Assembly (NCBI GenBank): GCA_002787355.1
Contig: PCWN01000003.1
Location: forward strand, 8,606-72,605
Direction: 5' to 3'
Length of the DNA stretch: 64,000 nucleotides
Source of the DNA: Candidatus Magasanikbacteria bacterium CG11_big_fil_rev_8_21_14_0_20_39_34
GTDB taxonomy: Bacteria > Patescibacteriota > Patescibacteriia > Magasanikbacterales > UBA922
Shown: positions 41,417-64,000 of the stretch, piece by piece
How positions within the stretch are numbered: position 1 is the first letter of the stretch
Layout of the letters: each line of letters begins with the position of its first letter
Program-made: the position numbers and the translations under genes
Notes under the pieces: generated by a model
Databases searched by the model: none
Told to the model about the DNA's origin: nothing
Seen by the model: only the letters and a program-made list of their open reading frames with translations

Positions 41417-41908
41417 ATGACACAAGAAGCACACAAAAGACCTACCTGGGATGAATATTTTATGGAAATTGCACGAGCTGTAGCCAAACGTGCTACTTGT
41501 GATCGTGGCAGGTCTGGTTGTGTTATTGCAAAGAACAAACAAATTCTTGTAACTGGCTATGTTGGGGCTCCTTCCGGGCTTGGACATTGCGATGATGTTG
41601 GCCACCAAATGAAAACCGTAACCCATGAAGATGGCCACCAAAGCCAACACTGTGTTCGTACGACCCATGCAGAGCAAAATGCCATAGTTCAGGCAGCAAA
41701 GAATGGGACCCCTATTGACGGAGCAACTCTCTACTGCAAGATGACTCCTTGTACTACTTGTGCCAATATGATTATCAACTCAGGAATTAAGCGTATTGTC
41801 TGCGAAAAGCGTTACCATGCAGGAGAAGACAGTGAAAAAATGTTCCTTACGGTGGGAATGGAAATGCATTATTTACATGATGAAGTAGAAGAGTATGCCA
41901 ACCAATAA
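41417..41908 (+). CDS. dCMP deaminase (ComEB/cytidine-deoxycytidylate deaminase family)
   Basis: HAEQNAI and PCTTCANMI zinc-binding motifs. Confidence 0.85.
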   Translation: MTQEAHKRPTWDEYFMEIARAVAKRATCDRGRSGCVIAKNKQILVTGYVGAPSGLGHCDDVGHQMKTVTHEDGHQSQHCVRTTHAEQNAIVQAAKNGTPIDGATLYCKMTPCTTCANMIINSGIKRIVCEKRYHAGEDSEKMFLTVGMEMHYLHDEVEEYANQ

Positions 41909-42458
41909 GCTTATTTTGGGATTTACGGGTCTTATTTCAAGTGGAAAAGGGACCGCAGCAGAATACCTCCGTGATACTTATTCTGCAAGCATGTATACTT
42001 TTTCCACCATGCTCAAAGACGCCCTGAACAGATTTTATCTCGAGATCAATCGTGATCACCTGATAAAAATTTCCGAAATAATGCGAGGAACATTTGGAGA
42101 AGATGTCATGGCAAAAACAATGGCAAAGGATGTTGCATCAGATCCTAACCCAATTATTATTGTAGATGGTATTCGTCGTCTTGCAGATATAGAGCATCTC
42201 AAACGCCTTGAGGGTTTTGTCATGATAGAAATTTTTGCAGATCCAGAAGTCCGTTACCAAAGACTTATTGCTCGAAGTGAAAAAGCAGACGACAAAACAA
42301 AAACCTACGAACAATTTTTAGAAGACCATAAACGATCCACTGAAGTAAGTATTTTGGAAGTTGCCAAATATGCCACAGAACGCGTAGATAATAATGGTGA
42401 TATTGAAGATTTACATAAACAACTCGATGCACTTATTCAAAAGTATCGTAACAAGTAA
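41895..42458 (+). CDS. P-loop nucleotide kinase (dNMP kinase / CoaE-like fold)
   Basis: Walker A GLISSGKGT near the N-terminus, 187 aa. Sits between the dCMP deaminase and dUTPase genes. Confidence 0.5.
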   Translation: MPTNKLILGFTGLISSGKGTAAEYLRDTYSASMYTFSTMLKDALNRFYLEINRDHLIKISEIMRGTFGEDVMAKTMAKDVASDPNPIIIVDGIRRLADIEHLKRLEGFVMIEIFADPEVRYQRLIARSEKADDKTKTYEQFLEDHKRSTEVSILEVAKYATERVDNNGDIEDLHKQLDALIQKYRNK

Positions 42459-42903
42459 AAAAAACATGCAGGTAAATATTAAACGCATAGATTCCTCTCT
42501 CCCCCTTCCAGAATATCAGACGGAAGGAGCCGTTGCGTTTGATATGTACAGTCGGATTGAAGCAAAAATTCCACCGGGAAAAACAGCTCTCCTTCCCACA
42601 AACCTTATTATCGAGACTCCTCCTGGATACATGCTTATGCTTGCCGCAAGATCAAGCCTTGCAAAAAAACGTGGACTGAAACTTGCAAATGGAGTTGGAA
42701 TCATTGATCAAGATTATTGTGGGGATACCGATGAAATTTATATTCATATGCATAACTTTAGCGAGACCTTGGTAAAAATTTCACCCGGAGATCGCTTAGT
42801 CCAAGGTATGTTTGTCCCTATTGAAAAAGCTACCTGGAAAGAGCAAACCCGTATGAACAAAGAAAGTCGTGGTGGATTTGGAACAACGGGGGATCAAACC
42901 TAA
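42436..42903 (+). CDS. dut: dUTP diphosphatase
   Basis: dUTPase motifs GAVAFDMY, RSSLAKKRG, GIIDQDYCGD, GDRLVQ and RGGFGTTG. Confidence 0.85.
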   Translation, partial: FKSIVTSKKNMQVNIKRIDSSLPLPEYQTEGAVAFDMYSRIEAKIPPGKTALLPTNLIIETPPGYMLMLAARSSLAKKRGLKLANGVGIIDQDYCGDTDEIYIHMHNFSETLVKISPGDRLVQGMFVPIEKATWKEQTRMNKESRGGFGTTGDQT

Positions 42904-42942
42904 AACATTTCCAAAATTTTCAATCATATATTTTCTTGCAGT

Positions 42943-43134
42943 GTGCCTGTCGACCCTCAAAAAATTTTGAACCAATATCTGCAATATGCCAAGCAGCTTT
43001 TTGCCAACTACAAAAATGACATGGATACACTTGAAAAAAGTGAAAGAGCCTATGCAAAAGAACTCTTAGAAACCACGGAAAAAGGAAAAATGCTGAAAAT
43101 TTACAAAAAAATTGATAATATTGAGGATAAGTAA
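42943..43134 (+). CDS. small helical hypothetical protein (GTG start)
   Basis: 63 aa with coiled-coil-like composition. Lies immediately upstream of the giant-operon promoter. Weak support. Confidence 0.3.
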   Translation: MPVDPQKILNQYLQYAKQLFANYKNDMDTLEKSERAYAKELLETTEKGKMLKIYKKIDNIEDK

Positions 43135-43163
43135 TTGACGAATAAAGATCTTTTTAGTATAAT
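43135..43163 (+). promoter_or_regulatory. sigma70-type promoter (TTGACG-17-TATAAT) for the giant-ORF operon
   Basis: Hexamers with a 17-nt spacer, 33 nt upstream of the first giant ORF. Confidence 0.5.
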
Positions 43164-43195
43164 CGCCTGTTAAAATAGTTTTTAACTTTCACCCT

Positions 43196-45961
43196 ATGTG
43201 TCCAGCACCACAATCAGAATCTCAACCCCAATCTGACCCAAAAAAGTGGGAAGTTATTCAAGGAGAGAAACGCGCTGGTGAAGAATATCAACCACCACAC
43301 TACGGTGACCTTTTTTCTCAAGAAAAACAAGATGCTCTACTGGAGAGACTCCAAAGCTCTCAATTAAAATCTCGTGAAAAAATAGCTCACAGAACCAATA
43401 AAGAAATTGCTAAACTTTTACGAGATAACCGAGTCCCAAAAACGGCAAAAAGGTACCTTGAACAAGCGGCCAAAGCCTTAGAAAACGATGATCAATTTTT
43501 AGGAAAGGAACTCATCTACAAAGCAGCCGATACCTCTGCAGAAGACTCATTTGATCTCATTGAATACAAACCTTTCAGAAAAGTTTTGAATTTTCTTCGC
43601 GACCCCCTTGTCATTCCTCAAAGCGGAGCATCTCGTGCAGCAAAAATGGCAGAGTTCTTTGACTATGGTATCCGCGAATTTGTCTGGGGAAGGAAACTTC
43701 CAGATACACGTGCAAAAATCAAACTTACACCGGATCAAGCACGTGCCAAGGAAAAACAGCGAAAAAAAGAGCTTGACGAAGAAACAGCACCAGAATCCCC
43801 CAATCATATACCAGAGAATATCAAAGAACATGGCGAAAATATTCCGCATGTGTTTTTTGCAAAAACAAAACGTGGTATTGAAAATGCTCTTGACTTCACT
43901 CGAAAATTTTTGGGGGATCGAACTTCCTCAGAATATGCCGAAATTGCAAAAAAAGAAGATCGCAAACTCAGTGATATTGAGCTTGCACACGAAAGAAGAA
44001 AAGATAAACTTCCCTCAACATTTGACCGCTGGGCCCAAGAAAATCTAGCTTTAGAGCTCCAAGCAAAACAAGTAAGTGACCGCCTCCTTGAAATTGTACG
44101 TGGAAGCGAAGAGGAAGATCCCCTTACAGGACAAAAACCCGTACTTGGTATTTTTGATAAAGTTCGAGAAGTTGTGAAAGAAGCTCCACTCGTTGCAGAT
44201 AAAGAAAAAAATCCTTACGCTATTGATCCAGATGAATTGGAAGAGCACATTAATATGGTGCGACAACAAGTTGGAAGAAATTATGAAAACCTTACTGCAG
44301 CATTAAGAAACCTTTACTTTGGAGGAGCTGCAAAAAATTCTTCCGAAGAGGAAAAGAAAACAACTCCTTCCCTGATGGAATCTCTTGATAGAAATGGAAT
44401 ATTTATCCCAGAACTGCATAAAGAAAAACGCCTTCTTGAAGGCCTCAAGGAAGTAGATGGTACACACTCTCAAGACCTTTCTCTCATGCGTGAATCTGAA
44501 ATACAAGGTGAGATTTTAATAGTAGAAATTGAAGGTGAATCACCCTCCGTAGTAGAAGTTCTTGCTTACTATCCAGATGAGGATAAACTTGAACTCAAAA
44601 ACCTCTCTTCAAATACTGAAGAAATTTTTTCCATTCACCCCCATGAACATGATGTCCGACAAATTCAAAAAGGTGATTGTATTGAATTGGTAGACCGAAG
44701 TACTGGAGAAAAAACAGAAGCGGAGATTATAGGAGATATAATGGTCCTTGATAAAAAAATCCCGGTTGAAATTACGATGAATGGAGAAAAACAACAATAT
44801 CTTGTATCACTTCAAGATTTTGATGTTCATAAGATATATAAGGATGAAAAAGAACAAATTATAGACCCGTCATCAGAGGCCAGTCCAGAAGAATCCAACG
44901 CGGAATCTTCTACAGGGACTCTTCTCCCTCGTGAACAAAAAGCAGAAAAAGAACCAAAATTGGTCCCCTTTCTTGTTATACCAGAAAGTATTTCAGAATT
45001 TGATCAATTTGTCATGAAAAATTCTGATGGAAAAGAAATACAAGTGGAAGTGTCCAATCTAAGAAATAACGGTCCATATACTCAAGCTTCCATAAGAAAT
45101 CTTAGTGGACGTGAACAACGGTGGGAAGCACAAATTTTAAAAAATGAATCTGATGTATCACTCGATGAATCCGGAGAAAAGGAAGATCATTGGACACTGA
45201 AAGAAAAACTTCGTTCCACCGAATCAAAATCCGATGATCTTGCATCAGATATTTTATATGAATTTGTGGAAAACGAATATCCACAAGAACTTACAAAAAA
45301 AGATAAACAAGGAAAACTGACCCCTACGTATTCTATTCCAAACAGGGACTCTGTAGTATCCTTACTCGAAGAATCTGTAGATACCGGAAAAAAACCTACC
45401 CGGCTACAAAAAGCTTCCCTTTCCTCTCTACACCATCTTGCTGAGGACCCATTGGAAAAAGAAGGACTTGCTGAAAAAATTGCGGAAAAAATCAAAGGGA
45501 AAAAAGAAACACATCCTTTTACTAAGCGAATGCAAAAGTTTGTAGGTAAGTTCAAGAATAGAGAAATGCAGAAACAAATGAAAGATACTTTATTCGATGC
45601 TAGACGTGAGTTAAGAGATAAAATAAACCTTGCAATTTTAGATAATAAAAATTTGATTATCTCCACAGCAGGACAAGAGGCATTTAAAGATGCATTAAAA
45701 ACAGAAACGGTAGGTCTGATGTACCGACTCTGGAGAATGATAGAAATTTTGGAAAATAAACTTCTGGAGATGCATCGTTCTATACGCAACCCCCACGAAC
45801 TTAAAGTGGCAGAGCACATTCTTATTCAGGCAACAAAAAAAGCACTTGATAAAGTTGTTTCAGGAAGTTTAACTCAAGCGGAACAAATTATTAAAACGGT
45901 AAAAGGTGATACAGAGCCCAAACAAAATGACTCTGCATGGTCTTTTGATGACGCAGAGTAG
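43196..45961 (+). CDS. giant hypothetical protein 1 (921 aa, acidic, no signal peptide)
   Basis: Uninterrupted ORF with native AT-rich composition, Lys/Glu-rich, no TM helix, no motif I recognise. Confidence 0.7.
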   Translation: MCPAPQSESQPQSDPKKWEVIQGEKRAGEEYQPPHYGDLFSQEKQDALLERLQSSQLKSREKIAHRTNKEIAKLLRDNRVPKTAKRYLEQAAKALENDDQFLGKELIYKAADTSAEDSFDLIEYKPFRKVLNFLRDPLVIPQSGASRAAKMAEFFDYGIREFVWGRKLPDTRAKIKLTPDQARAKEKQRKKELDEETAPESPNHIPENIKEHGENIPHVFFAKTKRGIENALDFTRKFLGDRTSSEYAEIAKKEDRKLSDIELAHERRKDKLPSTFDRWAQENLALELQAKQVSDRLLEIVRGSEEEDPLTGQKPVLGIFDKVREVVKEAPLVADKEKNPYAIDPDELEEHINMVRQQVGRNYENLTAALRNLYFGGAAKNSSEEEKKTTPSLMESLDRNGIFIPELHKEKRLLEGLKEVDGTHSQDLSLMRESEIQGEILIVEIEGESPSVVEVLAYYPDEDKLELKNLSSNTEEIFSIHPHEHDVRQIQKGDCIELVDRSTGEKTEAEIIGDIMVLDKKIPVEITMNGEKQQYLVSLQDFDVHKIYKDEKEQIIDPSSEASPEESNAESSTGTLLPREQKAEKEPKLVPFLVIPESISEFDQFVMKNSDGKEIQVEVSNLRNNGPYTQASIRNLSGREQRWEAQILKNESDVSLDESGEKEDHWTLKEKLRSTESKSDDLASDILYEFVENEYPQELTKKDKQGKLTPTYSIPNRDSVVSLLEESVDTGKKPTRLQKASLSSLHHLAEDPLEKEGLAEKIAEKIKGKKETHPFTKRMQKFVGKFKNREMQKQMKDTLFDARRELRDKINLAILDNKNLIISTAGQEAFKDALKTETVGLMYRLWRMIEILENKLLEMHRSIRNPHELKVAEHILIQATKKALDKVVSGSLTQAEQIIKTVKGDTEPKQNDSAWSFDDAE

Positions 45962-45982
45962 TTCAGCTATGTAATTTTTTCT

Positions 45983-47737
45983 ATGGCACGAGGTGAATAC
46001 CGAGTCGCAAAACAACTCACACAAGAATCTGTACACAGGCAGGCCAATCTTGATGCACAACAAGGCAAGCGTGTTCGGGGTGGAACAGATGTTATTCGTG
46101 TTCGAAATGCCAGAAAGGTTTCCGGTTATACTTATGAGAAGATAGATCGTAGAGGTGAATACATGGGTATTCATGTGGGTGACCGTGTACAGTTTACTCC
46201 CCTTTCATCTTTTGGTCACAGTCCTGGACTCCTGAGTGGATATGTTGCAGAAGTGCGTGGCCACATGTTCAAAGTACATCTCACACACCCCAAAGGACAT
46301 CCCGATGCTGGAAAATTAACTTCTCCACCAGATTTTGAGTATGTAAACTATGACAATATCGTCAATCATGTTGACCTTTCAACAAAAGCTGAGACACCTG
46401 AAGTTGAAACTCCTCCAGAAGAAACTCCCCCCACCGAAGCGGCGAGAGAAACTGAGGCAGAACCCAAACGAGAACAACTCACCGACTTTATTTCCTGGGA
46501 ACCAAGTACACAAACAGCCAATGTAGCTGGGACAGAAGTGTCCTTTGATCTTGGTGTTCCCCCAGAATGTGTGCTTTTGTCTCAAGAAGATGAAAGCGGA
46601 AATACACGACTTCGTTTTTCCTATAGTGATGAAAATTTTCTTGAGCTCTCAGCACTTGGTACGGATCAATATGCGTTTAGTATTCTCCTGCAAGGACAAA
46701 ATCCTGAAGTTCCAACGGAAGACGGCACAGCTACCATTCCCCTTCTTGGTGTTGAAGTGAAAAAGGAAAACATGGTAAATATTTTTCAACAGTTTGTTCA
46801 TGCAGTAAAAGGTTTGGATATTGTGGCTCCGGAAAGTGAACCTACTCCTTCAATAGAAGGCGAAGAAGAAAATGTAGATGAAGAGCCAAAGGAAGAAGCG
46901 ATTGAACAAAAAAAGGAAAAAAGAAGACCTGATACAGATATTCGTACACACGTAGATGACCTTGTAGCACGACAACTTGGACGTGATATCGTTGGAGCCG
47001 CGGTAGATCAAGAATTGGATCGAATGCAAGAGATTGAAGAAGTGCTTGAAGCACAAATCGAAAGATACAAAAAAGAATTAAAAGAGAGGGTAAATACAGC
47101 AATATTACAACTACAAGCAAAAGATCATGGGAAAAACCGTCTTTGTTGTGATCCTTCTTACTTTGATGAAAAACTTTTAAAAGTTTTACAAGATACAGAA
47201 AAAATTCAAGATCTCCTTTCAATCATAGATGATCCCCAAAATTCAAATCTGTTTCCAACTGATAAAATTGTTTTTACCAGTGAAACCTTTGCAGATAATG
47301 TACTCATGCAGCCAGACACCAAAATGCTTTACATTAATAGAGATGCCACACCAGAAGATCTTAGAAATTTTTATGAGAATTGCAAACAAGCAAAAAATGA
47401 TCGTGAAGCATTTTTTAAGAGTCTTCAAGCATTAAATGCCCCTTTCGTATATTTCACCGATGAGGTTCATCATTTTGATCAAAGTTTTATAGATACCTCC
47501 ATTGGAACAGAAGGCACCAAAGCTATTAAAAAATGTGCCGAATTTATTACCAAAAACCCTGTAAAAGGAACCGTAGAAAAAATAGTTATTTCCGTGAAAG
47601 AAACGGATCAGTTATTTGTGTATGACAAAGAACAAAAATTCCTTATTATAAGCCCAAAGGCAGGTTGGGAAAACTATGAAGACAAACTAAGAGAAGTACT
47701 CCTTATCATAGAACAAACAGCTCCATCCAGATCTTAA
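45983..47737 (+). CDS. giant-operon protein 2 (584 aa, hypothetical; Pro/Glu/Thr-rich linker)
   Basis: 22 nt downstream of ORF1 on the same strand. Linker ETPEVETPPEETPPTEAARETEAEPK. Confidence 0.65.
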   Translation: MARGEYRVAKQLTQESVHRQANLDAQQGKRVRGGTDVIRVRNARKVSGYTYEKIDRRGEYMGIHVGDRVQFTPLSSFGHSPGLLSGYVAEVRGHMFKVHLTHPKGHPDAGKLTSPPDFEYVNYDNIVNHVDLSTKAETPEVETPPEETPPTEAARETEAEPKREQLTDFISWEPSTQTANVAGTEVSFDLGVPPECVLLSQEDESGNTRLRFSYSDENFLELSALGTDQYAFSILLQGQNPEVPTEDGTATIPLLGVEVKKENMVNIFQQFVHAVKGLDIVAPESEPTPSIEGEEENVDEEPKEEAIEQKKEKRRPDTDIRTHVDDLVARQLGRDIVGAAVDQELDRMQEIEEVLEAQIERYKKELKERVNTAILQLQAKDHGKNRLCCDPSYFDEKLLKVLQDTEKIQDLLSIIDDPQNSNLFPTDKIVFTSETFADNVLMQPDTKMLYINRDATPEDLRNFYENCKQAKNDREAFFKSLQALNAPFVYFTDEVHHFDQSFIDTSIGTEGTKAIKKCAEFITKNPVKGTVEKIVISVKETDQLFVYDKEQKFLIISPKAGWENYEDKLREVLLIIEQTAPSRS

Positions 47738-47742
47738 ATCTT

Positions 47743-50100: not shown

Positions 50101-50106
50101 AATAGT

Positions 50107-53100: not shown

Positions 53101-53937
53101 GCAACGTACCGAGGTGAACGCGTTGGTGATAGAACGCCAGCCCTCTTCTTTGCTATAGGAGAAAAGAAAGAAGCACCTGAAAAAAAGAAAGAAGAAAATC
53201 CCTATCTCTCAGAATCTATTCTTGGACAACACATCACCCGGGTGGTCCATGACATTGTGGTAAAAACAGGAGACTATTTCCGTTTTTCAAATGATAACGG
53301 AAAAACATGGATCTATGGACGTGTCGCTTCTATCTCGGAAAAAAGAACAGATGCCGACCAAAGCTTTCCTTTTTTCAGAGAAGAAGATGGAAGAGTGATG
53401 TATTTTAATGGTTATAAAAAAAGCATGCACGATATAGGCACCCAGTTTGAAAAACTTGATGAACCTGGTAAACATGCAGAGGCTAAGAAAACACAGGAAG
53501 TGGATTCTGAAAAACTCTTGGCAATCCTCAACGATCTTCAACCATACTTACCAAGTATACAGCCCGAAAAAATTGTACCGACGTGGATTCAAAAAGCCAA
53601 AGAAACATCCAGTATTCCTATGGAAGTCCAAAGGCAAATCATCATCCTTTCTCAGAGAAATCATAAGAATCATGAATACTTTGATTGGTCAGAAGAGAAT
53701 CCACTTGCAACTAAACTCCGCGAATTGGCAGCAGTATTTGGAGTAACTCTTCTTACTTCAGAGGGGCAAATCCCAGATAGAGAGAAACATTATAACCAAA
53801 GAGGCATTGATCACGATGACCTGAAAGCCCAAGGGATAAATATACAACGCAATCGTATTTATAAAACACTTGCCCCAGGTTTTATTGCGTCAAATGGTGA
53901 AGTCATCAGTCAAGAAAATGTTTTGGTAACTTTTTAA
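50107..53937 (+). CDS. giant-operon protein 4 (1276 aa): N-terminal region, (Glu-Pro)x29 linker, calcineurin-like/PPP-type metallophosphatase-like domain
   Basis: EP repeat at aa 560-617. Downstream motifs in canonical order: LEDAHG (GDxHG-like), [11 protein letters not shown] (GDxxDRG) and ILASNHD (GNH[DE]-like), then FIHGHD. Confidence 0.7.
51784..51957 (+). repeat. 29 tandem copies of a 6-nt GAR-CCN unit encoding (Glu-Pro)29
   Basis: Counted codon by codon. The units are imperfect at synonymous positions (gaa/gag, cca/cct/ccg). Confidence 0.9.
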
Positions 53938-53962
53938 TAAAAATATAGTCTAAAATTATTTT

Positions 53963-56900: not shown

Positions 56901-59212
56901 ATACTTTCTTGCGTATCTATAGAAGTACTGTCACCGATACTCCTGACGAATCAATTGAATCCCAAAGAATGCTCGCTCTTGTCGGACAAAAAAATATACC
57001 AGAAGCCCTTACTGCAGAAAAAGTAAATGAAATATTAAAAGGATATTATTACACACGCATAAATGAACATATAGAAAGAATGGAACGTGCGCAAGCTACG
57101 AAAGGAAGGGATTATGCCACACGTATAAAAGGAGTCGCACAACAAAAGTCCGTTTCTGAAATGGATGAAACTGAGCGAACTATCCTTGAATCAGATATAA
57201 ATGTTCTCTTACTTACCCGGGGGAAATCTGAATACAAAAAACAAAAACAAGAGGCAGTTATTGGAGCCTTGAATGGTCAGTTTGAAAATTACGAACAACT
57301 CCTTGAGGCCATATACAAAAAAAATCTTGAACTTGTCATATATAAAAGAGATCACTCTACGGCACTTCCCCCAGATGAATATGCCCTTGTACGTGCACTC
57401 ATTGATGCCAATAATGAAGAGGAAGAAATTGTACATAAAGACCGTCCTGAAGAAAAACAAATAGTGCCTGCAAAACATTCTTTATTTAGAATAGACAAAA
57501 ATATTCGGATGATCCGTGGTATTGTGCGTACTGGTGGAGCACAATGGCTTCGTATTCATCTTGGAGATCCTCTTCGTGTACAAGAAAGAAATGGTACTAT
57601 CACTCTCCCTGCACAAACAGAAAGACGGATTGCAAACCTCAAATCAAAGTATCCAGACCTCTGCAAAGATCCAGAAGGGAATGAAATTTCAGATATAGAA
57701 CTTACCCAAAAGCTTCAAAATCTTTTGGAAGACTATTATTATTTTGAAATAAAAACCAATCGTGCCAATCTAGAAGAAAGAAAAGAAAATGTCTTTGAAC
57801 ATAAAGCCTTTTCTGAGATGTCTCCTTCTGATGAACAACGTTTTGTAAATAATTTGGTATTCTTTGGGGTACACCACATAGAACGTAGACGAATGGTTAT
57901 GGGGATATTTGGTCTTACCCCAGAGGAATATAATGCATTTCTTTTAGAAGTGAAAAAGGTGGATGATGAATATACACGATTCAAAATAGCAAATGCTGAA
58001 AAACCAACCCAAGAAGAAATGTCACTCGCACATGCTCTAAGAAAAGGTAATGAACTTGATCCAAAACTCAAACACATCTTAGATGAACGACAAAAATACC
58101 GAAGAAATAGACGTGCTATCCCGAAAGATTTGGAGCTGAACAGAGACCAGCATAATCAAGTTCGGATGAGTCTCCATGATGTGGAGACACAGTTTATTGA
58201 ATTGCGAAGAGGACTTTTATCTAAAGATGCAGTGCGTTTGTATGCACTTGAACCTATTCTGCGAAAATACGGGGCCATAACAGAAGAAAGAATTAAAAAT
58301 GCACAACAAGCATATACCGGTACTCAAGATGTTTCTTCAATTTCACGACAAACCTGGAATGATGCATACACCAAGCATTTTTATTGGAGACTCAAACAGG
58401 CGCAAGAAAAGAAAATTGCTGATGATGCAGCAAGAGAGAAAAGAGTTCAAACAGGCCAACGCGTCCGTGCTACCGGTGGGACAAGCGATGCACAGCTCGC
58501 AGGAAAACTTGGAGGGCTTTTTGCAAATGTACTTCAAGATGTTGACCTATCCAGGGCACAGTATGCTCCAGAAAAAATAGACGCTATTCTGTCTGGACAC
58601 TCTGAGGTGCTTACCCGTTATGTGAAGGCACGTCCTGGCGCCACCTATACGACAGAATTTCTTACAAAGTATCTGACAAAAGAAAAACTAAAAGCACTTG
58701 AAAAAATTGTGGGAGACAAAAAATATTCTCCACTCTTTGAAGAATTATCTCTTACCATAGTACTTGTTGAACCTAAATTCAATGGAGAAGATGGAGCAGA
58801 CCAAGATATTGAAGGTGAAGAAATTGACTTGGATCTCTCTATTCCAAACTCCCTTGATTCTCTTCGAGAAGCTCTCGAAGACCTGCTCAAAGAACAAGAA
58901 GAGCAAAACGCTGAAGAAAAAATTAATGCCTATATATTAAAATTCTTAGAAAATTATGAGATACAGGGGAATCCCGGAGAAGATAACCTGGAAAACATAT
59001 TCCTGGTTCAAGGGGAGACCAGAATATCCGCAGCTGACTTTGCAACAGAAAAATTTGAGAACCTCTCAAATGAGTTTATAGAAAAGAATATTGCAAAAGG
59101 AGCAAATGTCCTTTCCATTACAGAAGCCTTCATTGATATTGTCAAAAACACCCTTTCTGAGTCAGCAGATGGTGAAGAGGATAATAATACAGAGACGCTT
59201 GACGAAGAATAA
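53963..59212 (+). CDS. giant-operon protein 5 (1749 aa, hypothetical; N-terminal MORN-like repeats, long helical remainder)
   Basis: N-terminal YFEGEVVDDLPNGVGRIIEGKKVEADGEFKDGYLQHGIAYRYDGE repeats. The rest is Glu/Lys/Leu-rich with an acidic C-terminus, no TM helix and no signal peptide. Confidence 0.7.
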   Translation: MPQSSAYKERVQQEVLGTKKVLRDFGIEKIKSDADLFKALRALRDAGRLDELKALLHARREAITTALGKTIILGGRDGKSRYFEGEVVDDLPNGVGRIIEGKKVEADGEFKDGYLQHGIAYRYDGETLRFTTIVEEAYPNGRVKSGSIINAKDGRRLSSEAFHEDGTTDQGELIDENGIVLKEGAFVVYDKHLLLSSGQIEHYPHTHTVHIGDQDIPIVRTDANSYRFEKQADTYQEMPEGKGTTTDTKGQVYEIYFEDGKDYRAQGYVKVYKSAEEHKLLRILNREISFAPPALDQDAIQQKLAELRTGKGEEATLRTELSDLYKTTHDAHTTFNNELVPFIQKNYVDASVGDIQSKLKIGHFATKLNAKITTLKKQANTEPDQITLKHALDTIRYQGFTKGATESLKDLLAEYCTIDNSTGGFISDSNKDAFLAAYSANMEATLAQIRSTLDTTAEAFLDEKKAREITSGNIHKWFKELGEAKGFSFSVAGSTFEFRANLQPDGSLHAQYDEDEMNIVLNGDALTATVRIAGKESQRSLPNSKESLKLLLLGFKAELEKKEQSRAVEAAIQTAANAHIWPCWDEKTQSPASPAKLDEDTGKNFDAARRRVLHTLDFSIDRDTYFEIYTQWFDAHIAEYGSSGEYFADVYKGDREKKFRIIQLLEKDSFNEDEKGELTELLSYLEKDVKGNHDLMSALEYSSDTLKEQIKTLKKKLGIKKEKKSPTDAPKKVEVTQTEQFQRDLQDAQNDIAQMRTILVKDSLSEYDEATLGDLAETLRFTLERLEQIDPTLYDQLDTTKKALWAELKLNQETAEQPGNEFVRDHTETPEDSEPRMGPYAEYDTKKISSAIHAVKELVILLSETDEELEDATPFMEFEMDLIALLYLTSNKSGRKTEVLSALHGVFDNPGQFFESLNNIEDVIADEYRERTLESPISAEDRALAMNILNILNKDSDLSLSVLEKRAYYCAKCIVDEREDTFLRIYRSTVTDTPDESIESQRMLALVGQKNIPEALTAEKVNEILKGYYYTRINEHIERMERAQATKGRDYATRIKGVAQQKSVSEMDETERTILESDINVLLLTRGKSEYKKQKQEAVIGALNGQFENYEQLLEAIYKKNLELVIYKRDHSTALPPDEYALVRALIDANNEEEEIVHKDRPEEKQIVPAKHSLFRIDKNIRMIRGIVRTGGAQWLRIHLGDPLRVQERNGTITLPAQTERRIANLKSKYPDLCKDPEGNEISDIELTQKLQNLLEDYYYFEIKTNRANLEERKENVFEHKAFSEMSPSDEQRFVNNLVFFGVHHIERRRMVMGIFGLTPEEYNAFLLEVKKVDDEYTRFKIANAEKPTQEEMSLAHALRKGNELDPKLKHILDERQKYRRNRRAIPKDLELNRDQHNQVRMSLHDVETQFIELRRGLLSKDAVRLYALEPILRKYGAITEERIKNAQQAYTGTQDVSSISRQTWNDAYTKHFYWRLKQAQEKKIADDAAREKRVQTGQRVRATGGTSDAQLAGKLGGLFANVLQDVDLSRAQYAPEKIDAILSGHSEVLTRYVKARPGATYTTEFLTKYLTKEKLKALEKIVGDKKYSPLFEELSLTIVLVEPKFNGEDGADQDIEGEEIDLDLSIPNSLDSLREALEDLLKEQEEQNAEEKINAYILKFLENYEIQGNPGEDNLENIFLVQGETRISAADFATEKFENLSNEFIEKNIAKGANVLSITEAFIDIVKNTLSESADGEEDNNTETLDEE

Positions 59213-59297: not shown

Positions 59298-60170
59298 ATG
59301 CAGGCATACCTTGATATTGTCAAAAAGATTCTCGAACATGGTGAGGAGAAAGAAAATAGGACCGGAACCAATACCCTATCCATTGCTGGAGTCCTGTTTG
59401 AACATGACATGAGCACAGGGTTTCCACTCCTTACTACCAAAAAAGTCCCCTTTCGTCTCATTGCCTCTGAGTTAGAATTTTTTATCAAAGGGATTACAGA
59501 TAAAGAATGGCTCAAAGAAAGAAATAATCACATCTGGGATGAATGGGCACACCCCCTCAAAGCCCCTTATGGACACGACGAGGCCTCAAAACAACGCATG
59601 ATGGAAGAAAGGGATTTGGGCCCTGTGTATGGCTTCCAGTGGAGACACTACAATGCAGAATATGAAAATTATAACTCAGACTATTCCGGAAAAGGAGTAG
59701 ATCAGCTTGCCAAAATTGTAGACTCACTCAAAAATAATCCCAATGATAGAAGAATGCTCGTGAGTGCATGGAATCCAATACAAATGAACCAAATGGCGTT
59801 GCCACCTTGCCACTACGCCTTTCAGGTAGTGGTAAATAATGGGAAACTCAATCTCATGTGGAACCAACGCTCCGTTGATGTAATGTTAGGACTCCCCTTC
59901 AATATTGCCAGCTATGCATTGCTCCTGCACCTACTTGCCAAAGAGGCAAATCTTCAAGAAGGGAGACTCGTTGGTTTCTTGGGAGACACCCATATCTACA
60001 CCAATCATAGGGATGGTGCACAAGAACAACTCTCACGTGACCCCAAAAAGTATCCCCTTCCACAGATTATAACCGAACCTTTTACCTCAATTTTTGACTG
60101 GTCTTATGAAGACAGTAAAATTGAAAATTATCAAAGTTACCCAAGAATATCCTTTGAAATTGCTGTCTAA
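59298..60170 (+). CDS. thyA: thymidylate synthase (ThyA)
   Basis: Motifs RTGTNT, GPVYGFQWRH, ALPPCH (catalytic Cys), WNQRSVDVMLGLPFNIASYALL (Asn, not Asp, at the dUMP-specificity position) and GDTHIYTNH. Confidence 0.93.
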   Translation: MQAYLDIVKKILEHGEEKENRTGTNTLSIAGVLFEHDMSTGFPLLTTKKVPFRLIASELEFFIKGITDKEWLKERNNHIWDEWAHPLKAPYGHDEASKQRMMEERDLGPVYGFQWRHYNAEYENYNSDYSGKGVDQLAKIVDSLKNNPNDRRMLVSAWNPIQMNQMALPPCHYAFQVVVNNGKLNLMWNQRSVDVMLGLPFNIASYALLLHLLAKEANLQEGRLVGFLGDTHIYTNHRDGAQEQLSRDPKKYPLPQIITEPFTSIFDWSYEDSKIENYQSYPRISFEIAV

Positions 60171-60179
60171 CACATACCT

Positions 60180-60653
60180 ATGATTACTCTCATTGCTGCT
60201 GTATCAGAAAATTTTTGTATAGGAAAAAATGGTGAGCTTCCTTGGAACATCCCTGAAGATCTAAAGCATTTTAAACGTCTTACGGAAGGGCATGTGGTCA
60301 TAATGGGAAGAAAGACATGGGAATCCATCCCCGAAAAATTTCGCCCACTTCCTAAGAGAAAAAATGTTGTCATTACACGGCAAACAAACTATCCGGTTCC
60401 AGAAGGTGTGGAAGTTTTCTCAAACCTCGAAGAGGCGCTTCTTGCCTTCTCTCAACAATCCGTCTTTATTATTGGTGGAGAACAGATTTATTCGGCAACA
60501 ATAGAAAAAGCAGACCAACTTGAAATAACACATATTCAAAAAACCATACCTGATGGTGATGCTTTTTTTCCCGCAATAGACTCAAACCTTTGGGAAAACG
60601 TATCCGAGGAAACACACGAAAATTTTTCTTTTGTGACGTACAAACGCAAATAA
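60180..60653 (+). CDS. folA: dihydrofolate reductase
   Basis: MITLIAAVSENFCIGKNGELPWNIPEDLKHFKRLT and VIMGRKTWESIP, 157 aa. Confidence 0.9.
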   Translation: MITLIAAVSENFCIGKNGELPWNIPEDLKHFKRLTEGHVVIMGRKTWESIPEKFRPLPKRKNVVITRQTNYPVPEGVEVFSNLEEALLAFSQQSVFIIGGEQIYSATIEKADQLEITHIQKTIPDGDAFFPAIDSNLWENVSEETHENFSFVTYKRK

Positions 60654-60795: not shown

Positions 60796-61749
60796 ATGCC
60801 ATTTATTGATCTTGTTGTGGGTGGACCGGACATGAGTGGAACCGGAACACAAATTGAAGACATTATTTCTTTTTTTCAAAGTAAAGGGAAAAAAGTTCGT
60901 GATATGCGCAGAACAGAAGTTGATGCGCTTTTTCATGCAGAAATTTTTTCCCATATAAACCAAAACCACGTTAACCTAGGAAGCTTTTTGAGTGATGAAA
61001 GTATAGACCATGATGACAAAATTGCTTTTCTCTGGCAAGCATATGAACTCCTCTCCGGTGGTGGAACCAATGAAGACCTCAAAATTGCATCCTGTGTAAA
61101 AAATTTGGTGAGCAGCTATATAAATCCAAACAGTAGTGACGTATGGATATTTGAAGAACCCACCAAACGCGCAGCCGGGCAAAAAAATAGAGCTATAGAG
61201 CAACACAGAAGCCAGTACGAAAGCGAGACCGACCCAATTGCAGCGGCACTTTCACACCAAAATTATCGGATTGACGAGTTTCTTCGTTTTAGACGAGTCC
61301 TACGTCAAAAAGGAAAAATTATTATTCGCTCCCGTTCCGAAGAGTCTGCTTGTTATCAAATTTATCATCCGCAAAAATTAAAAAATGGAATTTCTCTGAA
61401 AGATTACCTTTCCCTTCCGGGACATAAAATTGCCTTCTCTCACCCCCCAACACATATATTTATTGTATGTGCTCCCAAAAATTGGACTAAAGATGAATAT
61501 CTTGAACTCAAAAAACAACGAAGTGGAAACCGACTCGTAGATGATTATGAGTCAAAAGCGGAATACCAGCTTCTCGTGAACTTTCGCTATGCCTCTTTGT
61601 GGGTAGAGAAACTCTATGAAGTTGGATGTGCACTCTATGGTGCAAAACCCCCTCAAATTATCCGTTTTGATATCTATAAGCCAAAAGAGGTTATAAAATT
61701 GGAAATGCAAAAAGCGCTTGAGACTATTCTTGAAAAATCTTTTGAATAA
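60796..61749 (+). CDS. thymidylate-kinase-like protein with lysine-less P-loop
   Basis: The N-terminal VVGGPDMSGTGTQ aligns to the dTMP-kinase P-loop (GxDGxGKxTQ), but Lys/Ser-Thr are replaced by T-G-T. IIRSRSEESACYQ resembles the DRY..S.AYQ lid region. Confidence 0.4.
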   Translation: MPFIDLVVGGPDMSGTGTQIEDIISFFQSKGKKVRDMRRTEVDALFHAEIFSHINQNHVNLGSFLSDESIDHDDKIAFLWQAYELLSGGGTNEDLKIASCVKNLVSSYINPNSSDVWIFEEPTKRAAGQKNRAIEQHRSQYESETDPIAAALSHQNYRIDEFLRFRRVLRQKGKIIIRSRSEESACYQIYHPQKLKNGISLKDYLSLPGHKIAFSHPPTHIFIVCAPKNWTKDEYLELKKQRSGNRLVDDYESKAEYQLLVNFRYASLWVEKLYEVGCALYGAKPPQIIRFDIYKPKEVIKLEMQKALETILEKSFE

Positions 61750-61856
61750 TAACCACTTTTTTGATATACTAAAAAGGTACGAGAAACACTCTTCAGTAGA
61801 CAGAACGGAATATTTTTTATTGCACTTTGTCTATTGTTCTTTGTAACCTTCCTTGT

Positions 61857-62891
61857 ATGCTTGAAACTTTAAAAAAATACCACCGCTATACCTATGGCAT
61901 AGCTTATGTTTTTTTTATTCTTATTCTCCTTTTGCTTTTGAAATATTTGAGCAGCCAACCAATTGTTTTTTTGGCCCTTTTTATTTATGGAAGTTTTGCT
62001 ATAAACTGGTTTTATGCTCGTTTTCTCAATGTTCCTATCCTCCCCCATGTGCTGGCATCCACTTTTAGTCCTATAGGCTTCTTTTATCTGATGGGTTATT
62101 CCCATGAGCTCCCCAATACTTGGAGCTTTATAAAAGGGACCATAGATCTCTACCGGCACAATATGAAAATTTTTTTGGAATATTCACTTGTATTTTTCAT
62201 CTTTAGTGTAGTCGTAACATCCCTTTCTACCTACATTGAAGTATGGGAAAACCATATTGGGAATACCTCCGGGATACTTTTAGGAATTTTTCTTTTATTC
62301 CGTCTTCTTGTAATTCTTTTTGGTTTTGTGCTCTCTATTGCCTTTTTGCGAGTTGTTGCCGCACGGATTATTGGCGTTGCTCCACATCATATGTCTTCTG
62401 AAATTTTTGATGCCTTTTCTCTCTTCTGGTCTTGTGTCTTTGTGACACTTGTCCTTATGGTACTCCTTTTTGTCCTCAATATTACACAGGCCTTTTTTCC
62501 AATATTTATCTTCCTGGCAATTCTTATTATTTGGTTTATTTTCTCCATCCATGCCGTTGTGATAGAAAATATCCGCGGGTTTTCCGCCTTTGGATATAGT
62601 AAAAAATTAGTCCGTGGAAGAGCCTGGTCCGTTCTCTGGATTCTCGTTGCTTTGACAGGACTCTTTGCCTTTATTGCGTACTTTATACAAGGTATACTGG
62701 TGGCCCCATTTTTTGACATGCTCTTACAGGTGGTCTCAACGGGAAGTAGTTTCTCAATTATTTTGAACAATATTTTTGCTCTTATCAATGCATTTGTTCA
62801 AACCATGCTCATGCCTCTATATGCCTTTATTCCGTCTACCCTTCTTTACTTCCAACTCAAAAGACTCCATGAAGAAAAAAAAGAAGTATGA
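61857..62891 (+). CDS. hypothetical polytopic membrane protein
   Basis: About 8 hydrophobic helices. The ORF-track start at 61827 is a TTG; the Met at 61857 is preferred. Confidence 0.5.
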   Translation: MLETLKKYHRYTYGIAYVFFILILLLLLKYLSSQPIVFLALFIYGSFAINWFYARFLNVPILPHVLASTFSPIGFFYLMGYSHELPNTWSFIKGTIDLYRHNMKIFLEYSLVFFIFSVVVTSLSTYIEVWENHIGNTSGILLGIFLLFRLLVILFGFVLSIAFLRVVAARIIGVAPHHMSSEIFDAFSLFWSCVFVTLVLMVLLFVLNITQAFFPIFIFLAILIIWFIFSIHAVVIENIRGFSAFGYSKKLVRGRAWSVLWILVALTGLFAFIAYFIQGILVAPFFDMLLQVVSTGSSFSIILNNIFALINAFVQTMLMPLYAFIPSTLLYFQLKRLHEEKKEV

Positions 62892-63517
62892 TAGATAGAT
62901 TTCAAAAACCTTCTGCCCCACTTTCAAGTATCATGAGTACCAATACCATTCGTGCAAAAAAATCTTTGTACTCTATTGTTCGAGATGTAAAAAAAACGCT
63001 CCCAGGGGAAAATCTGACGCATAAAAAAATGATTGCAAAAACTATCTATAAACTCAATAATGACCCCCATGCCGTAGTAACCAATAGAATGACCAAAGCA
63101 GCCGTAAAAGCATTGGGTGAGGCTGGGCATCTAAAAGGAAAATGGCACCAAAATGTTGGGGCAGCTATCACGCATGTAAAGCACATGCATGAAAAAACTT
63201 CCTCAAACACCGATACTTCCCACATGTCCCCGGAAGAGCGGTTAAAAAATGCCAAAACCTGGGAAGAAAAAAAAGCCGCACAAAAAGCCGAATCCATTCA
63301 AAGGAGACGACTGGAAGCGCGTGCAAGACAGGCAAGACAAGAAGCAGAGGACCAAGAAAAGGGAACAAAATTAGGACTCAAAGAATGGCAAGAATCTACT
63401 ACCTCCATAGGTGAAGCGGTAAAACAAAAAGAACGAGAACGAAAAAATCAAGCCGAACAAGATATGAGTGAACTGGAGCGACAAAGCAAGCAAATTATAG
63501 ATATGTCCATTGACTAA
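62888..63517 (+). CDS. hypothetical basic protein with Lys/Arg/Glu-rich C-terminus
   Basis: 209 aa. Overlaps the previous stop by 4 nt (ATGA). Confidence 0.45.
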   Translation: MIDRFQKPSAPLSSIMSTNTIRAKKSLYSIVRDVKKTLPGENLTHKKMIAKTIYKLNNDPHAVVTNRMTKAAVKALGEAGHLKGKWHQNVGAAITHVKHMHEKTSSNTDTSHMSPEERLKNAKTWEEKKAAQKAESIQRRRLEARARQARQEAEDQEKGTKLGLKEWQESTTSIGEAVKQKERERKNQAEQDMSELERQSKQIIDMSID

Positions 63518-63530
63518 ATATTCAACACCA

Positions 63531-63563
63531 AAAAAACCCATTAGATAGCTGATGGGTTTTTTA
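63531..63563. terminator. bidirectional rho-independent terminator
   Basis: Stem AAACCCAT/ATGGGTTT with a 10-nt loop, flanked by an A-run and a T-run. Sits between convergent genes. Confidence 0.5.
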
Positions 63564-63583
63564 TTTCTCTTTACCTCATTTTT

Positions 63584-64000
63584 TCATTCCTTCCACTCCA
63601 CTCCCCTTTTTTCAAATTTTTCTTTTAAGTCTTCTTTTAGCATTTCAAACATAGTCTCTATAGGTTCCTTCTTTCCCAGTGCATCACAAAAACTTTTTAC
63701 TGCAAATGCTGGATAATAACTATGGAAAATTTCTAGGGTATATTTTTCTACCCCATGTTCATTCAAATGAATAAAACTCTCTAGCTTATCCAGTGCATTT
63801 ATAAACTTTGCTTCCAAGGTTTTTTGTTCCTTGTATTCTTCCCACAAATCATACATGGTTTGAGAAGAAAAAAAGGTATCACTAAAGTTTCCCATAAAAA
63901 CAGCCTCTTGATGATTTTTTTCTTCACGACTTACTTTTCCATTTAAAACGTCCACCGCATCTTTATCACCCGTGTATACTTCTGGCAAATCATGAACTAA
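63584..64000 (-). CDS. HD-domain phosphohydrolase, YfbR-like 5'-deoxynucleotidase (partial, continues past window end)
   Basis: In-frame upstream codons at the window edge read HDLPEVYTGD, the HD-domain metal motif. No stop before position 64000. The ORF-track Met at 63988 is a TTG. Confidence 0.6.
   Translation of the reverse strand, partial: LVHDLPEVYTGDKDAVDVLNGKVSREEKNHQEAVFMGNFSDTFFSSQTMYDLWEEYKEQKTLEAKFINALDKLESFIHLNEHGVEKYTLEIFHSYYPAFAVKSFCDALGKKEPIETMFEMLKEDLKEKFEKRGVEWKE

Follow-up and report, generated by a model that had tools for sequence, protein, structure and literature searches.

A lysine-less thymidylate kinase-like protein in a dTTP module divided by a giant-protein operon in Candidatus Magasanikbacteria

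How a dTTP module might phosphorylate dTMP when its thymidylate kinase-like product lacks the Walker-A lysine is the question raised by contig PCWN01000003.1 of Candidatus Magasanikbacteria bacterium CG11_big_fil_rev_8_21_14_0_20_39_34, an organism with a small genome. Canonical P-loop kinases use this lysine, together with the Asp of the DRY motif, for ATP phosphates and Mg2+, and the lysine is thought indispensable for kinases such as thymidylate kinase (Tmk). The window analysed here is the whole stretch of 64,000 nucleotides that carries the module, and no Tmk homolog other than the lysine-less protein, hereafter TmkL, was found within these 64 kb. We propose, with a probability of about 0.5, that TmkL is the dTMP kinase of the module with a rewired donor site.

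Organization of the dTTP module

The module genes were found in two blocks, one at 41.4-42.9 kb composed of a dCMP deaminase, a P-loop kinase, and a dUTPase, and the other at 59.3-61.7 kb composed of ThyA, DHFR, and the gene encoding the 317-aa TmkL. The gene identities given in an earlier, sequence-only reading of this DNA were borne out, each named gene lying at or near the position assigned to it. The first gene of the module, situated directly 3' of rplA, encodes a zinc-dependent cytidine deaminase of the dCMP/dCTP type (41417..41908, plus strand; ORF from 41393; PF00383, 91.6 bits); its ComEB-like score of 107.8 bits was under the equivalog cutoff, and its position was syntenic with that of the deaminase in loci L058, L010, and L061. 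The following gene (41895..42458, plus strand) shares 14 nt with the end of the deaminase gene, and its product bears a canonical Walker A (GLISSGKG; AAA_17, 36.9 bits), with SSO1041 of UPF0200 as the top PDB match (E 6e-14). Profile searches of this product against CoaE, dNK, ADK, and DNMK gave scores under cutoff in every case, as did PRK08356 (67.7 bits, cutoff 189), and the CoaE identity that the sequence-only reading had entertained was rejected (CoaE 18 bits, cutoff 27; TIGR00152 20 bits, cutoff 65.6). The protein is a UPF0200/AdkA-like kinase that repeatedly adjoins or is fused with dCMP deaminase; for example, a relative in the archaeal locus L003 is fused to the deaminase (E 3e-56). 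The dUTPase gene comes next (42466..42903, plus strand, with a probable ATG start at 42466 in an ORF that opens at 42394; PF00692, 71.5 bits; NF001862, 114 bits, cutoff 103).

In the second block, a promoter-like site (59240-59268) precedes the thymidylate synthase gene thyA (59298..60170, plus strand; PF00303, 332 bits; TIGR03284, 315 bits, cutoff 108). Direct reading shows the PPCH cysteine and the Asn of PFNIASY, and the enzyme is canonical and dUMP-specific, as previously claimed. The dihydrofolate reductase gene folA (60180..60653, plus strand; PF00186, 187 bits) is followed by a second promoter-like site (TTGAAT-17-TACAAT, 60739-60767) and then by the TmkL gene (60796..61749, plus strand).

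Between the two blocks is a giant operon (43196..59212, plus strand) of five ORFs of 921, 584, 785, 1276, and 1749 aa, preceded by a promoter-like site of its own (TTGACG-17-TATAAT, 43135-43163). A Pfam search of these proteins gave no matches beyond two features of the 1276-aa protein, namely a WipA-like phosphatase domain and an (EP)n repeat, and the operon does not belong to the nucleotide module. In the CPR contigs L057/L058, the order is GyrB-SecE-NusG-L11-L1-deaminase-kinase-dUTPase-ThyX-Tmk, with neither the giant operon nor any other large insert between dUTPase and ThyX. Because the module genes of these related contigs are contiguous after nusG-rplK-rplA, the module of our window is regarded as one unit split by the 16-kb giant operon, in agreement with the sequence-only reading. 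The region is best explained as a single operon for dTTP supply, ancestral in this CPR lineage and situated 3' of nusG-rplK-rplA; in the source genome, the giant-protein operon would have been inserted between the dUTPase gene and thyA. Giant ORFs are similarly placed in the Nomurabacteria locus L004, their similarity to those of the window being weak (E 2e-4).

The deaminase and its partner kinase would convert dC nucleotides to dU nucleotides, the dUTPase step would yield dUMP, and ThyA with FolA would convert dUMP to dTMP. The pathway is one from dC/dU-nucleotide to dUMP to dTMP via deaminase, dUTPase, and ThyA/FolA, not the salvage-oriented route suggested earlier, and no thymidine kinase was found in the module. 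In line with the earlier reading, no phage link was found, and TmkL did not occur in IMG/VR contigs or INPHARED phages.

Fold and homology of TmkL

A search of Pfam and NCBIfam models with TmkL gave no match, the protein scored under every curated Tmk model, and phmmer against the PDB returned nothing significant. These results could suggest that the resemblance to Tmk proposed from the sequence is spurious, or that the ORF is a decaying pseudogene. On the other side, a homology search gave 189 sequences at 50-67% identity, with one from an independent assembly being 100% identical, and the AF2 model was confident (pLDDT 91.4, pTM 0.89). All of the 50 top PDB matches listed by Foldseek for this model were thymidylate kinases (E about 1e-5, target-normalised TM about 0.78), with no sulfotransferase or other non-kinase fold among the matches listed. 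The hhalign matches were significant: the value was 92.7% for four canonical Tmk, and it rose to 99.8% (E 1.7e-29, end to end over 248 columns) for the long Tmk, a subfamily of about 240 aa of DPANN and CPR whose HMM scores TmkL at 85.8 bits. A spurious resemblance or pseudogene is very improbable and is effectively refuted by the homologs, the AF2 model, Foldseek, and hhalign; TmkL is, as judged from profiles and the predicted structure, a real Tmk relative with the Tmk fold that the sequence-only reading had assumed.

When compared to Tmk (EC 2.7.4.9; PF02223; type II as in E. coli), TmkL shares the fold, the Gly-rich P-loop with the 3'-OH-binding Asp, the cis-Pro EP motif, the Arg that holds the dTMP phosphate (equivalent to R78), the Arg of DR[YHF], the S..YQ thymine-recognition motif, the LID arginines spaced R-x3-R, and the operon position directly after thymidylate synthase. 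It differs in length, exceeding Tmk by about 110 residues and bearing an insert of about 55 aa (residues ~48-103) that is found only in the TmkL family, and in carrying Thr for the Walker-A Lys, Ser for the DRY Asp, and His for the stacking Phe, in addition to the loss of the Glu before the P-loop. The long Tmk of Woesearchaeota and Patescibacteria, annotated by NCBI/JGI in various ways as thymidylate kinase, dTMP kinase, or deoxynucleoside kinase, shows full-length homology with TmkL, including the motifs EPT..G..R, xRSxxSSxxYQ, and LPG[NH]..A, an extra strand (KVFD) after helix 1, the gene neighbours, and the coupling to ThyX or ThyA-DHFR. Unlike TmkL, it passes PF02223, retains the GK[GST] lysine (in at least 90%), and is without the 55-aa insert and the TmkL-specific set of invariant Arg/Glu/His.

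Active-site residues and conservation

The missing lysine was correctly noticed in the sequence-only reading: Thr occupies the Walker-A lysine position of TmkL, since residues 10-19 read GPDMSGTGTQ. This Thr16 was present in 132 of the 135 full-length family members, as was Ser at the DRY Asp position (132/135). Lys16 occurs in two members, P0052 and P0103, so the P-loop still tolerates it. Together with a small residue for Glu9, Thr16 for Lys16 and Ser179 for Asp99 make up the three changes in the Mg-ATP site, and the Mg-ligand position 17 varies (S in 80, T in 28, and G in 24 members, Gly being the residue in our window). The residues that hold dTMP are kept, namely the P-loop Asp12, Arg158 (E. 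coli R78), Arg180 (R100 of DRH), Ser184, Tyr187, and Gln188, the last four within the DRY-equivalent segment RSRSEESACYQ (178-188), whose RSRSEES is found in 133 of 135 members. Likewise, Arg242 and Arg246, the LID arginines typical of type II (R149 and R153 in E. coli), are retained in 134 and 131 of the 135 members, and R158, R180, R132, and R166 in all of them. New invariant residues comprise Arg178, Glu182/Glu183, His47/154/210, and several arginines. Across bacteria and archaea 55 columns are invariant and the mean column identity is 51%, and five residues (G10, P122, R158, R180, and R242) do not vary among TmkL, the long and short Tmk, and the four canonical Tmk. The family is under very strong purifying selection.

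Distribution and gene neighbourhood of TmkL

The TmkL family is tight, being composed mostly of DPANN archaea and a few CPR bacteria, and in its tree a long stem leads to a tight crown. TmkL is best explained as a fast-diverged, mostly archaeal offshoot of the long Tmk of DPANN and CPR, and a transfer from DPANN probably brought it to the source bacterium. In sister CPR and Woesearchaeota genomes, the operon slot that TmkL occupies, after ThyX or ThyA-FolA, is that of a Lys-bearing Tmk. For instance, it is a long Tmk that follows ThyX in the L11/L1-linked cluster of L057/L058; in Woesearchaeota, ThyX leads directly into long Tmk in L060, with stop and start 1 nt apart, and long Tmk faces DHFR-ThyA in L059. 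A Lys-bearing second Tmk is situated immediately upstream of ThyX in the CPR locus L061. ThyA or ThyX was present in the fetched flank of 31 of 52 TmkL loci, a synthase or DHFR gene was immediately upstream on the same strand in 21, and 38 had at least one dNTP gene, with SHMT, RNR, NrdR, and thioredoxin recurring. No Lys-bearing Tmk was found within 10 kb of TmkL in 51 loci, nor in our window. TmkL is not always the sole Tmk-like gene, because it adjoins a second, short Tmk, likewise lysine-less, in the CPR loci L009 and L010. The Walker lysine was missing from 105 of 116 sampled "short" Patescibacteria dTMP kinases.

Proposed function of TmkL

As the dTMP kinase of the module, TmkL would fill the thymidylate-kinase slot and transfer a phosphoryl group to dTMP to form dTDP, the donor being ATP or something else. 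Contacts with the beta/gamma phosphates and the metal would be made by relocated side chains, for which Arg178 and Glu182/183 are candidates. This would be analogous to the WNK ("with no lysine") protein kinases, a conserved kinase family in which a residue at another place in the active site stands in for the canonical catalytic lysine; WNK differ in having a protein-kinase fold and not that of a P-loop NMP kinase, and the relocation of a basic residue in TmkL is hypothetical. No biochemical data on TmkL were found in the literature searched. Against the kinase proposal, a dead ATP site is likewise marked by the absence of both Walker-A Lys and DRY Asp, position 17 is variable, and TmkL adjoins a short Tmk in L009 and L010. 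The same observations, combined with the retained NMP site, would fit a pseudokinase that serves as a dTMP/dUMP-binding sensor, regulator, or scaffold for thymidylate synthase, the real Tmk being encoded elsewhere, and the tight translational coupling to ThyX, ThyA, or DHFR in 21 loci would fit such a physical partnership. This reading, suggested in the sequence-only account, appears improbable to us, as the bacteria-archaea column identity, the invariant LID arginines, and the Gly-rich loop exceed the usual needs of ligand binding, and TmkL replaces the Lys-bearing Tmk at the same operon position and is not added to it. The lack of a Lys-bearing Tmk within 10 kb in the 51 loci, and in the window, also argues against it, as does the fact that the Tmk next to TmkL in L009 and L010 is lysine-less as well.

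A Tmk-scaffold enzyme that performs new chemistry on a thymidylate-related substrate is unlikely, if less so than a pseudokinase; it could be a dTDP-to-dTTP kinase, a kinase whose non-ATP donor is bound without Mg2+, or a group transferase. In this last version, the Thr-rich loop of TmkL (MSGT[ST]T), which may resemble the sulfotransferase PSB loop, would bind phosphate as the PKSGTT loop binds PAPS. The active site appears remodelled, not decayed: K16, D99, and E9 are gone, T16 is 98% conserved, about 15 new Arg/Glu/His are invariant (including R125, R138, R164, R166, R170, R178, E182, E183, H47, H154, and H210), and the base-stacking Phe is replaced by the invariant His154. The long stem and tight crown of the tree suggest a functional shift followed by constraint, and the coexistence of two Tmk-like genes side by side in L009 and L010 points the same way. 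However, this reading would leave no gene to account for the dTMP kinase step of the window or of about 46 archaeal dNTP clusters that encode every other step, TmkL keeps intact both the clamp for the dTMP phosphate and the LID arginines for phosphotransfer, and the listed Foldseek matches are free of sulfotransferase and other non-kinase folds.

Flanking genes and relation to the anti-phage dCTP deaminase

Downstream of TmkL, two genes (61827..63517, plus strand) encode a polytopic membrane protein of 354 aa and a charged protein of 209 aa, both without Pfam matches. The genes that follow TmkL in the Nomurabacteria locus L004 are syntenic with this pair, at 41% and 52% identity. In the window, the pair is followed by a fragment of the HD_3 family (YfbR-type 5'-deoxynucleotidase; 63584..64000, minus strand; PF13023, 56.2 bits, profile positions 55-135 of 165), whose N-terminus is beyond the window end. 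The sequence-only reading had included this gene in the module, to which it cannot be assigned because it is on the opposite strand, truncated, and not syntenic in the closest relative, L004, which has no HD_3 counterpart and a HAD hydrolase at that place.

Regarding the first two genes of the module (41417-42458), a comparison can be made with the anti-phage dCTP deaminase, in which a kinase is fused to a deaminase (Tal et al., bioRxiv 10.1101/2021.04.26.441389). Each of the two proteins of our window matched one half of the PADLOC dCTP-deaminase model (deaminase, E 2e-23; kinase, E 4e-11), and archaeal relatives of the pair are fused in the order kinase-deaminase. In contrast to the anti-phage system, the window bears two separate genes in reversed order, which score 68 bits on NCBIfam NF041025 (cutoff 400) and whose setting is not a defence island but a conserved housekeeping operon that follows genes for ribosomal proteins.

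Gene content of the thymidylate region

Genes were read by ORF listing and translation, followed by Pfam and NCBIfam scans. The dTTP-supply genes begin with a dCMP deaminase gene (41417-41908; PF00383, 91.6 bits), followed by a P-loop kinase gene with a canonical Walker A motif (41895-42458; AAA_17, 36.9 bits) and a dUTPase gene (42466-42903; NF001862, 114 bits against a cutoff of 103). The giant operon, composed of five very large ORFs (43196-59212), separates these genes from ThyA (59298-60170; TIGR03284, 315 bits against an equivalog cutoff of 108.35), DHFR (60180-60653; 187 bits), and a 317-aa ORF at 60796-61749 on the plus strand, for which neither Pfam nor NCBIfam gave a family match and which we call, together with its family, TmkL. 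Two genes of no assigned function are situated between TmkL and a minus-strand gene at the window edge, which encodes the C-terminal part of an HD_3 (YfbR-type) protein (PF13023, 56 bits against 22.5, with only profile positions 55-135 falling inside the window). The scans and translations recovered all genes named in the sequence-only reading. ThyA, described there as canonical, scores above the equivalog cutoff and carries, as read in translation, the PPCH catalytic cysteine and the dUMP-specificity asparagine of PFNIASY, and the GPDMSGTGTQ P-loop ascribed to the Tmk-like ORF is found at residues 10-19 of its translation. The observation made there is confirmed, and its interpretation is supported in part.

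Relationship of TmkL to thymidylate kinases

A word-indexed search returned 189 TmkL homologs with 50-67% identity, none of which bears a Pfam domain; most are labelled as hypothetical, with a few called "thymidylate kinase" (JGI). These approximately 190 proteins belong mostly to Nanoarchaeota, Woesearchaeota, and Pacearchaeota, with a few from CPR. When 1.8 billion representatives were searched exhaustively by HMM, the family appeared as a compact set of 26 clusters at E < 1e-30, followed after a gap by proteins of 230-305 aa (E 1e-11 to 1e-3). The latter correspond to a lysine-bearing Tmk subfamily of DPANN and CPR, here long Tmk, which scores above the Pfam Tmk threshold and has a normal GxDxxGK[GST] loop. 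Profile–profile alignment of TmkL with long Tmk gave a probability of 99.8% (E 1.7e-29, 248 columns) and revealed a TmkL-specific insert of about 55 residues, and the window protein reached 85.8 bits with the long-Tmk HMM. An AlphaFold model (AF2; 30 family members as input) had a pLDDT of 91.4 and a pTM of 0.89, and the best 50 matches listed by Foldseek against the PDB were all thymidylate kinases (probability 1.00, target-normalised TM about 0.78). The alignment to long Tmk and the structural matches of the model identify TmkL as a Tmk derivative. The sequence-only reading had made its Tmk assignment depend on similarity to the Tmk fold, and this similarity was recovered by both Foldseek and hhalign.

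The window protein lies below the curated family thresholds, with no PF02223 or NCBIfam Tmk match, and PF02223 produced one weak match among 30 TmkL members (E 0.046). A phmmer search with TmkL against the PDB yielded no match, the TmkL profile gave only weak P-loop matches there, to guanylate kinase and Tmk, and a PADLOC scan returned nothing for TmkL. Against four canonical Tmk, hhalign gave 92.7% with an unreliable register after the P-loop, so the alignment to long Tmk was used as a bridge. TmkL did not match the deoxynucleoside kinase model PF01712, and no dNK/dCK structure was present among the 50 Foldseek matches listed. TmkL belongs to a known enzyme family, of which it is a new variant lacking annotation. 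In one Nanoarchaeota MAG (L045:5053-6000), TmkL is broken into two adjacent ORFs; the gene may be frameshifted or a pseudogene there, or the break may be an error of sequencing.

Active-site residues of TmkL and of the short Tmk

TmkL was aligned jointly with long Tmk, the four canonical Tmk, and the short Tmk (the approximately 205-aa dTMP kinases of Patescibacteria); residue counts were taken over 135 full-length TmkL, numbered as in the window protein. All aligned proteins have in common G10, the cis-proline P122, R158 (equivalent to E. coli R78, which contacts the dTMP phosphate), R180 (the arginine of DRH), and R242 of the LID. The dTMP-site residues kept in TmkL comprise the P-loop Asp12, R158, and S184/Y187/Q188 of the S..YQ thymine motif. 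Both LID arginines are retained as well: R242, which aligns to E. coli R149, in 134 of the 135 proteins, and R246, equivalent to the type-II catalytic LID arginine R153 of E. coli, in 131. The Walker-A lysine at position 16 is lost, being replaced by threonine in 132/135 and serine in 1/135, with lysine found in 2/135. In the DR[YHF] motif, the aspartate acts on Mg2+ through a water molecule and the arginine serves as a phosphate clamp; in TmkL, the arginine (R180) is invariant and the aspartate is replaced by Ser179 in all 135 proteins. Other losses concern the glutamate preceding the P-loop and the base-stacking phenylalanine, which is replaced by His154; the Mg-ligand position 17 is occupied by S, T, or G (glycine in the window protein). 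At the same time, the family has gained invariant or nearly invariant residues, including R178, E182, E183, H47, H154, H210, R125, R138, R164, R166, and R170, and an RSRSEES motif is found in 133/135 members. Bacterial and archaeal TmkL share a mean column identity of 51%. This pattern of lost, kept, and gained residues is that of an active site re-engineered under strong constraint rather than decayed.

The loss of the lysine extends to the short Tmk. Those encoded at two CPR loci (L009, 9387-10004, and L010, 9384-10001) have GIDGSGTTSQ or GIDGSGATGQ as P-loop and KRY for DRY. Their 116 closest full-length relatives (among proteins P0183-P0302) were all from Patescibacteria and above PF02223, many carrying the NCBI label "dTMP kinase"; the Walker lysine is present in 11 of them and replaced by A, Q, S, T, G, N, or C in the other 105. 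The other Tmk catalytic residues are conserved; essentially invariant in this sample are E9, G10, D12, G13, G15, S/T17, E40, P41, F74, R78, R100, Y101, S104, and R149. In one subclade, the lysine position is occupied by T or A and KRY likewise replaces DRY; its members adjoin TmkL. In one contig (L062:10001-10618), the flank of the ThyX operon holds no Tmk other than a lysine-less short one with the loop GIDGSGQST. In another (L061:10001-10615), a lysine-less short Tmk accompanies a second, lysine-bearing Tmk. Loss of the Walker lysine is common in these lineages, even allowing for the bias of the sample to relatives of a lysine-less query. Our literature search found no report of such a loss in these lineages.

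Genomic neighbourhood of TmkL

TmkL occupies the genomic position of a thymidylate kinase. ThyA or ThyX was present within the fetched flank at 31 of 52 TmkL loci, at least one dNTP gene at 38, and at 21 the gene directly preceding TmkL on its strand was a synthase or DHFR gene, often with an overlap. Within three genes on either side of TmkL, the Pfam counts were ThyX 18, ThyA 11, DHFR 7, dCMP deaminase 17, AAA_17/18 kinase about 17, dUTPase/DCD 9, SHMT 6, and thioredoxin 7, with NrdR and ATP-cone also represented. One archaeal contig has in a row the genes for thioredoxin, ThyX, TmkL, dUTPase, DCD, deaminase, NrdG, NrdD, class II RNR, and NrdR, and thereby encodes all steps to dTTP except for a recognised Tmk. 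In other genomes, the same slot is taken by a lysine-bearing Tmk, which follows ThyX in two CPR contigs (L057/L058) and in a Woesearchaeota contig (L060), where the ThyX stop and the Tmk start are 1 nt apart. The lysine-bearing enzyme also lies beside ThyA-DHFR in another Woesearchaeota contig (L059) and immediately upstream of ThyX in L061. No TmkL had a lysine-bearing Tmk within 10 kb, and TmkL is the only Tmk homolog in the window. Matching records by the length of their longest contig gave, as a weak indication, four pairs of TmkL with short Tmk and no convincing pair of TmkL with long Tmk. As a complication, the gene order at L009 and L010 is the 205-aa short Tmk, TmkL, and ThyX.

Possible functions of TmkL

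P-loop kinases are regarded as unable to do without the Walker-A lysine, a residue on which annotation pipelines and pseudoenzyme calls depend. TmkL contrasts with this view as a compact, strongly conserved family with a fixed threonine at the lysine position, encoded where an essential enzyme would be expected. One far-reaching reading, to which we assign a probability of roughly 35%, is that TmkL and, more widely, the lysine-less Tmk of CPR and DPANN actively transfer phosphoryl groups without the Walker-A lysine, by means of relocated Arg/Glu residues or a non-ATP donor. The same facts would fit an enzyme performing altered chemistry on the Tmk scaffold, an explanation we hold only tentatively, and they would also fit a dTMP-binding pseudokinase, a possibility raised in the sequence-only reading, which we consider unlikely.

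If TmkL and its lysine-less relatives are active phosphotransferases, whole radiations of small-genome prokaryotes would depend, for an essential P-loop kinase step, on a catalytic centre considered inactive in textbooks. An active TmkL would represent a new way of transferring phosphoryl groups, and genes now labelled "hypothetical" would fill the dTMP-to-dTDP step when DPANN and CPR metabolism is reconstructed. Under altered chemistry, the Tmk scaffold would have been turned to an undescribed reaction in those radiations, and if TmkL is inactive, the dTTP supply of these organisms would need another explanation. A literature survey covering lysine-less Tmk, Tmk in CPR/DPANN, UPF0200, and Ca. 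Forterrea yielded no relevant work.

Distribution and phylogeny of TmkL

TmkL was present in 51 GTDB species, about 46 of them DPANN and 4-5 CPR. In a rough NJ tree, protein P0145 and two divergent Woesearchaeota proteins were placed at the base of a long stem leading to a tight crown, in which the few CPR sequences were nested among archaeal ones. P0145 is an intermediate, being likewise lysine-less and scoring slightly over the Pfam threshold. Transfer of TmkL from DPANN to CPR would be the simplest reading, and the family could serve to trace, as a clean marker, how genes passed from archaea to bacteria among episymbiont radiations. A phage derivation was rejected, as no TmkL homolog was found in the IMG/VR viral contigs or INPHARED phage genomes.

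The deaminase–kinase pair

The kinase at 41895-42458 is not CoaE, since it falls below both curated thresholds (PF01121, 18 bits against 27 and limited to the P-loop at residues 6-29; TIGR00152, 20 bits against 65.55); its gene context also argues against CoaE. Its best solved relative was the Sulfolobus UPF0200/AdkA-like protein SSO1041 (E 6e-14). The PADLOC dCTP-deaminase model (PDLC02373) matched the deaminase (E 2e-23) and the kinase (E 4e-11) with one half each, and an archaeal relative (L003:7218-8225) is a true kinase–deaminase fusion (E 3e-56). This fusion architecture is that of the anti-phage dCTP deaminase (Tal et al., bioRxiv 10.1101/2021.04.26.441389). [quoted passage not shown] The deaminase and the kinase would together provide the dC-to-dU step of the pathway, and the adjacent dUTPase would make sense if their substrate were dCTP. 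In many DPANN genomes, the deaminase and a UPF0200-like kinase form a fusion of about 335-360 aa, encoded within housekeeping dNTP clusters, and these proteins may be non-defence relatives of the anti-phage enzyme.

Ancestral operon and insertions

The genes gyrB, nusG, rplK, and rplA are located closely upstream of the module in the window, and this backbone is common to CPR contigs carrying homologs. In L057/L058, whose housekeeping proteins share 52-74% identity with those of the window, the order is GyrB-SecE-NusG-L11-L1-deaminase-AAA_17 kinase-dUTPase-ThyX-Tmk, and the operon start is identical in order in a Buchananbacteria contig (L010) and in L061. The closest relative of the window is a Nomurabacteria MAG (L001 = L004), in which giant ORFs are likewise found upstream of the thymidylate synthase and the two genes 3' of TmkL are kept (41% and 52% identity). 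Because of this synteny with L057/L058, L010, L061, and L004, the nucleotide genes are taken as one ancestral operon. The dUTPase and ThyX genes of L057/L058 are about 500 bp apart and lack the large insert, in agreement with the earlier suggestion that the giant operon splits the module; the giant operon was inserted, and a strong promoter-like site of its own is located at 43135-43163. The thymidylate synthase type was exchanged in place: directly upstream of TmkL, the window has ThyA-FolA (59298-60653) and L004 a 457-aa ThyX (8631-10004), so that these loci show the two types swapped next to one gene. The same alternation was observed among archaeal loci.

The giant proteins show marginal similarity to the Nomurabacteria giant ORFs at the same position (E 2e-4), and their sole Pfam matches, a WipA-like phosphatase domain, which is a Legionella effector type, and an (EP)n repeat, both lie in the 1276-aa protein. 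The five proteins are Glu/Lys-rich, and the operon has a strong A-skew. ARAGORN predicted a 98-nt tRNA-Glu(UUC) at 48269-48366 on the minus strand, inside the 785-aa ORF; it is probably a false positive, as an Rfam scan of the whole window at gathering thresholds returned no tRNA and no other RNA family.

Further features were observed in the housekeeping backbone. A GC-rich island at 31800-35850, between gyrB and nusG (53-61% GC against 34-39% in the flanks), encodes a 981-aa class A penicillin-binding protein (transglycosylase and transpeptidase) on the minus strand and a 286-aa ORF without a Pfam hit. Since related CPR contigs have only secE at this place, the island could have been acquired horizontally in recent times or could stem from a chimeric assembly. 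A second, small GC-rich patch at 39920-40354, just upstream of rplA (67% GC over 40000-40299), holds a 144-aa Gly/Ala/Pro-rich ORF and is joined to the L1 reading frame by a GTG-started ORF (40017-41270). Between rplK and rplA, a gene for a 303-aa lipoprotein-like protein with a Kazal-type protease-inhibitor domain (38496-39407) is inserted together with an ORF at 37476-38489, and a Kazal-domain protein is also encoded near the equivalent operon in L062.
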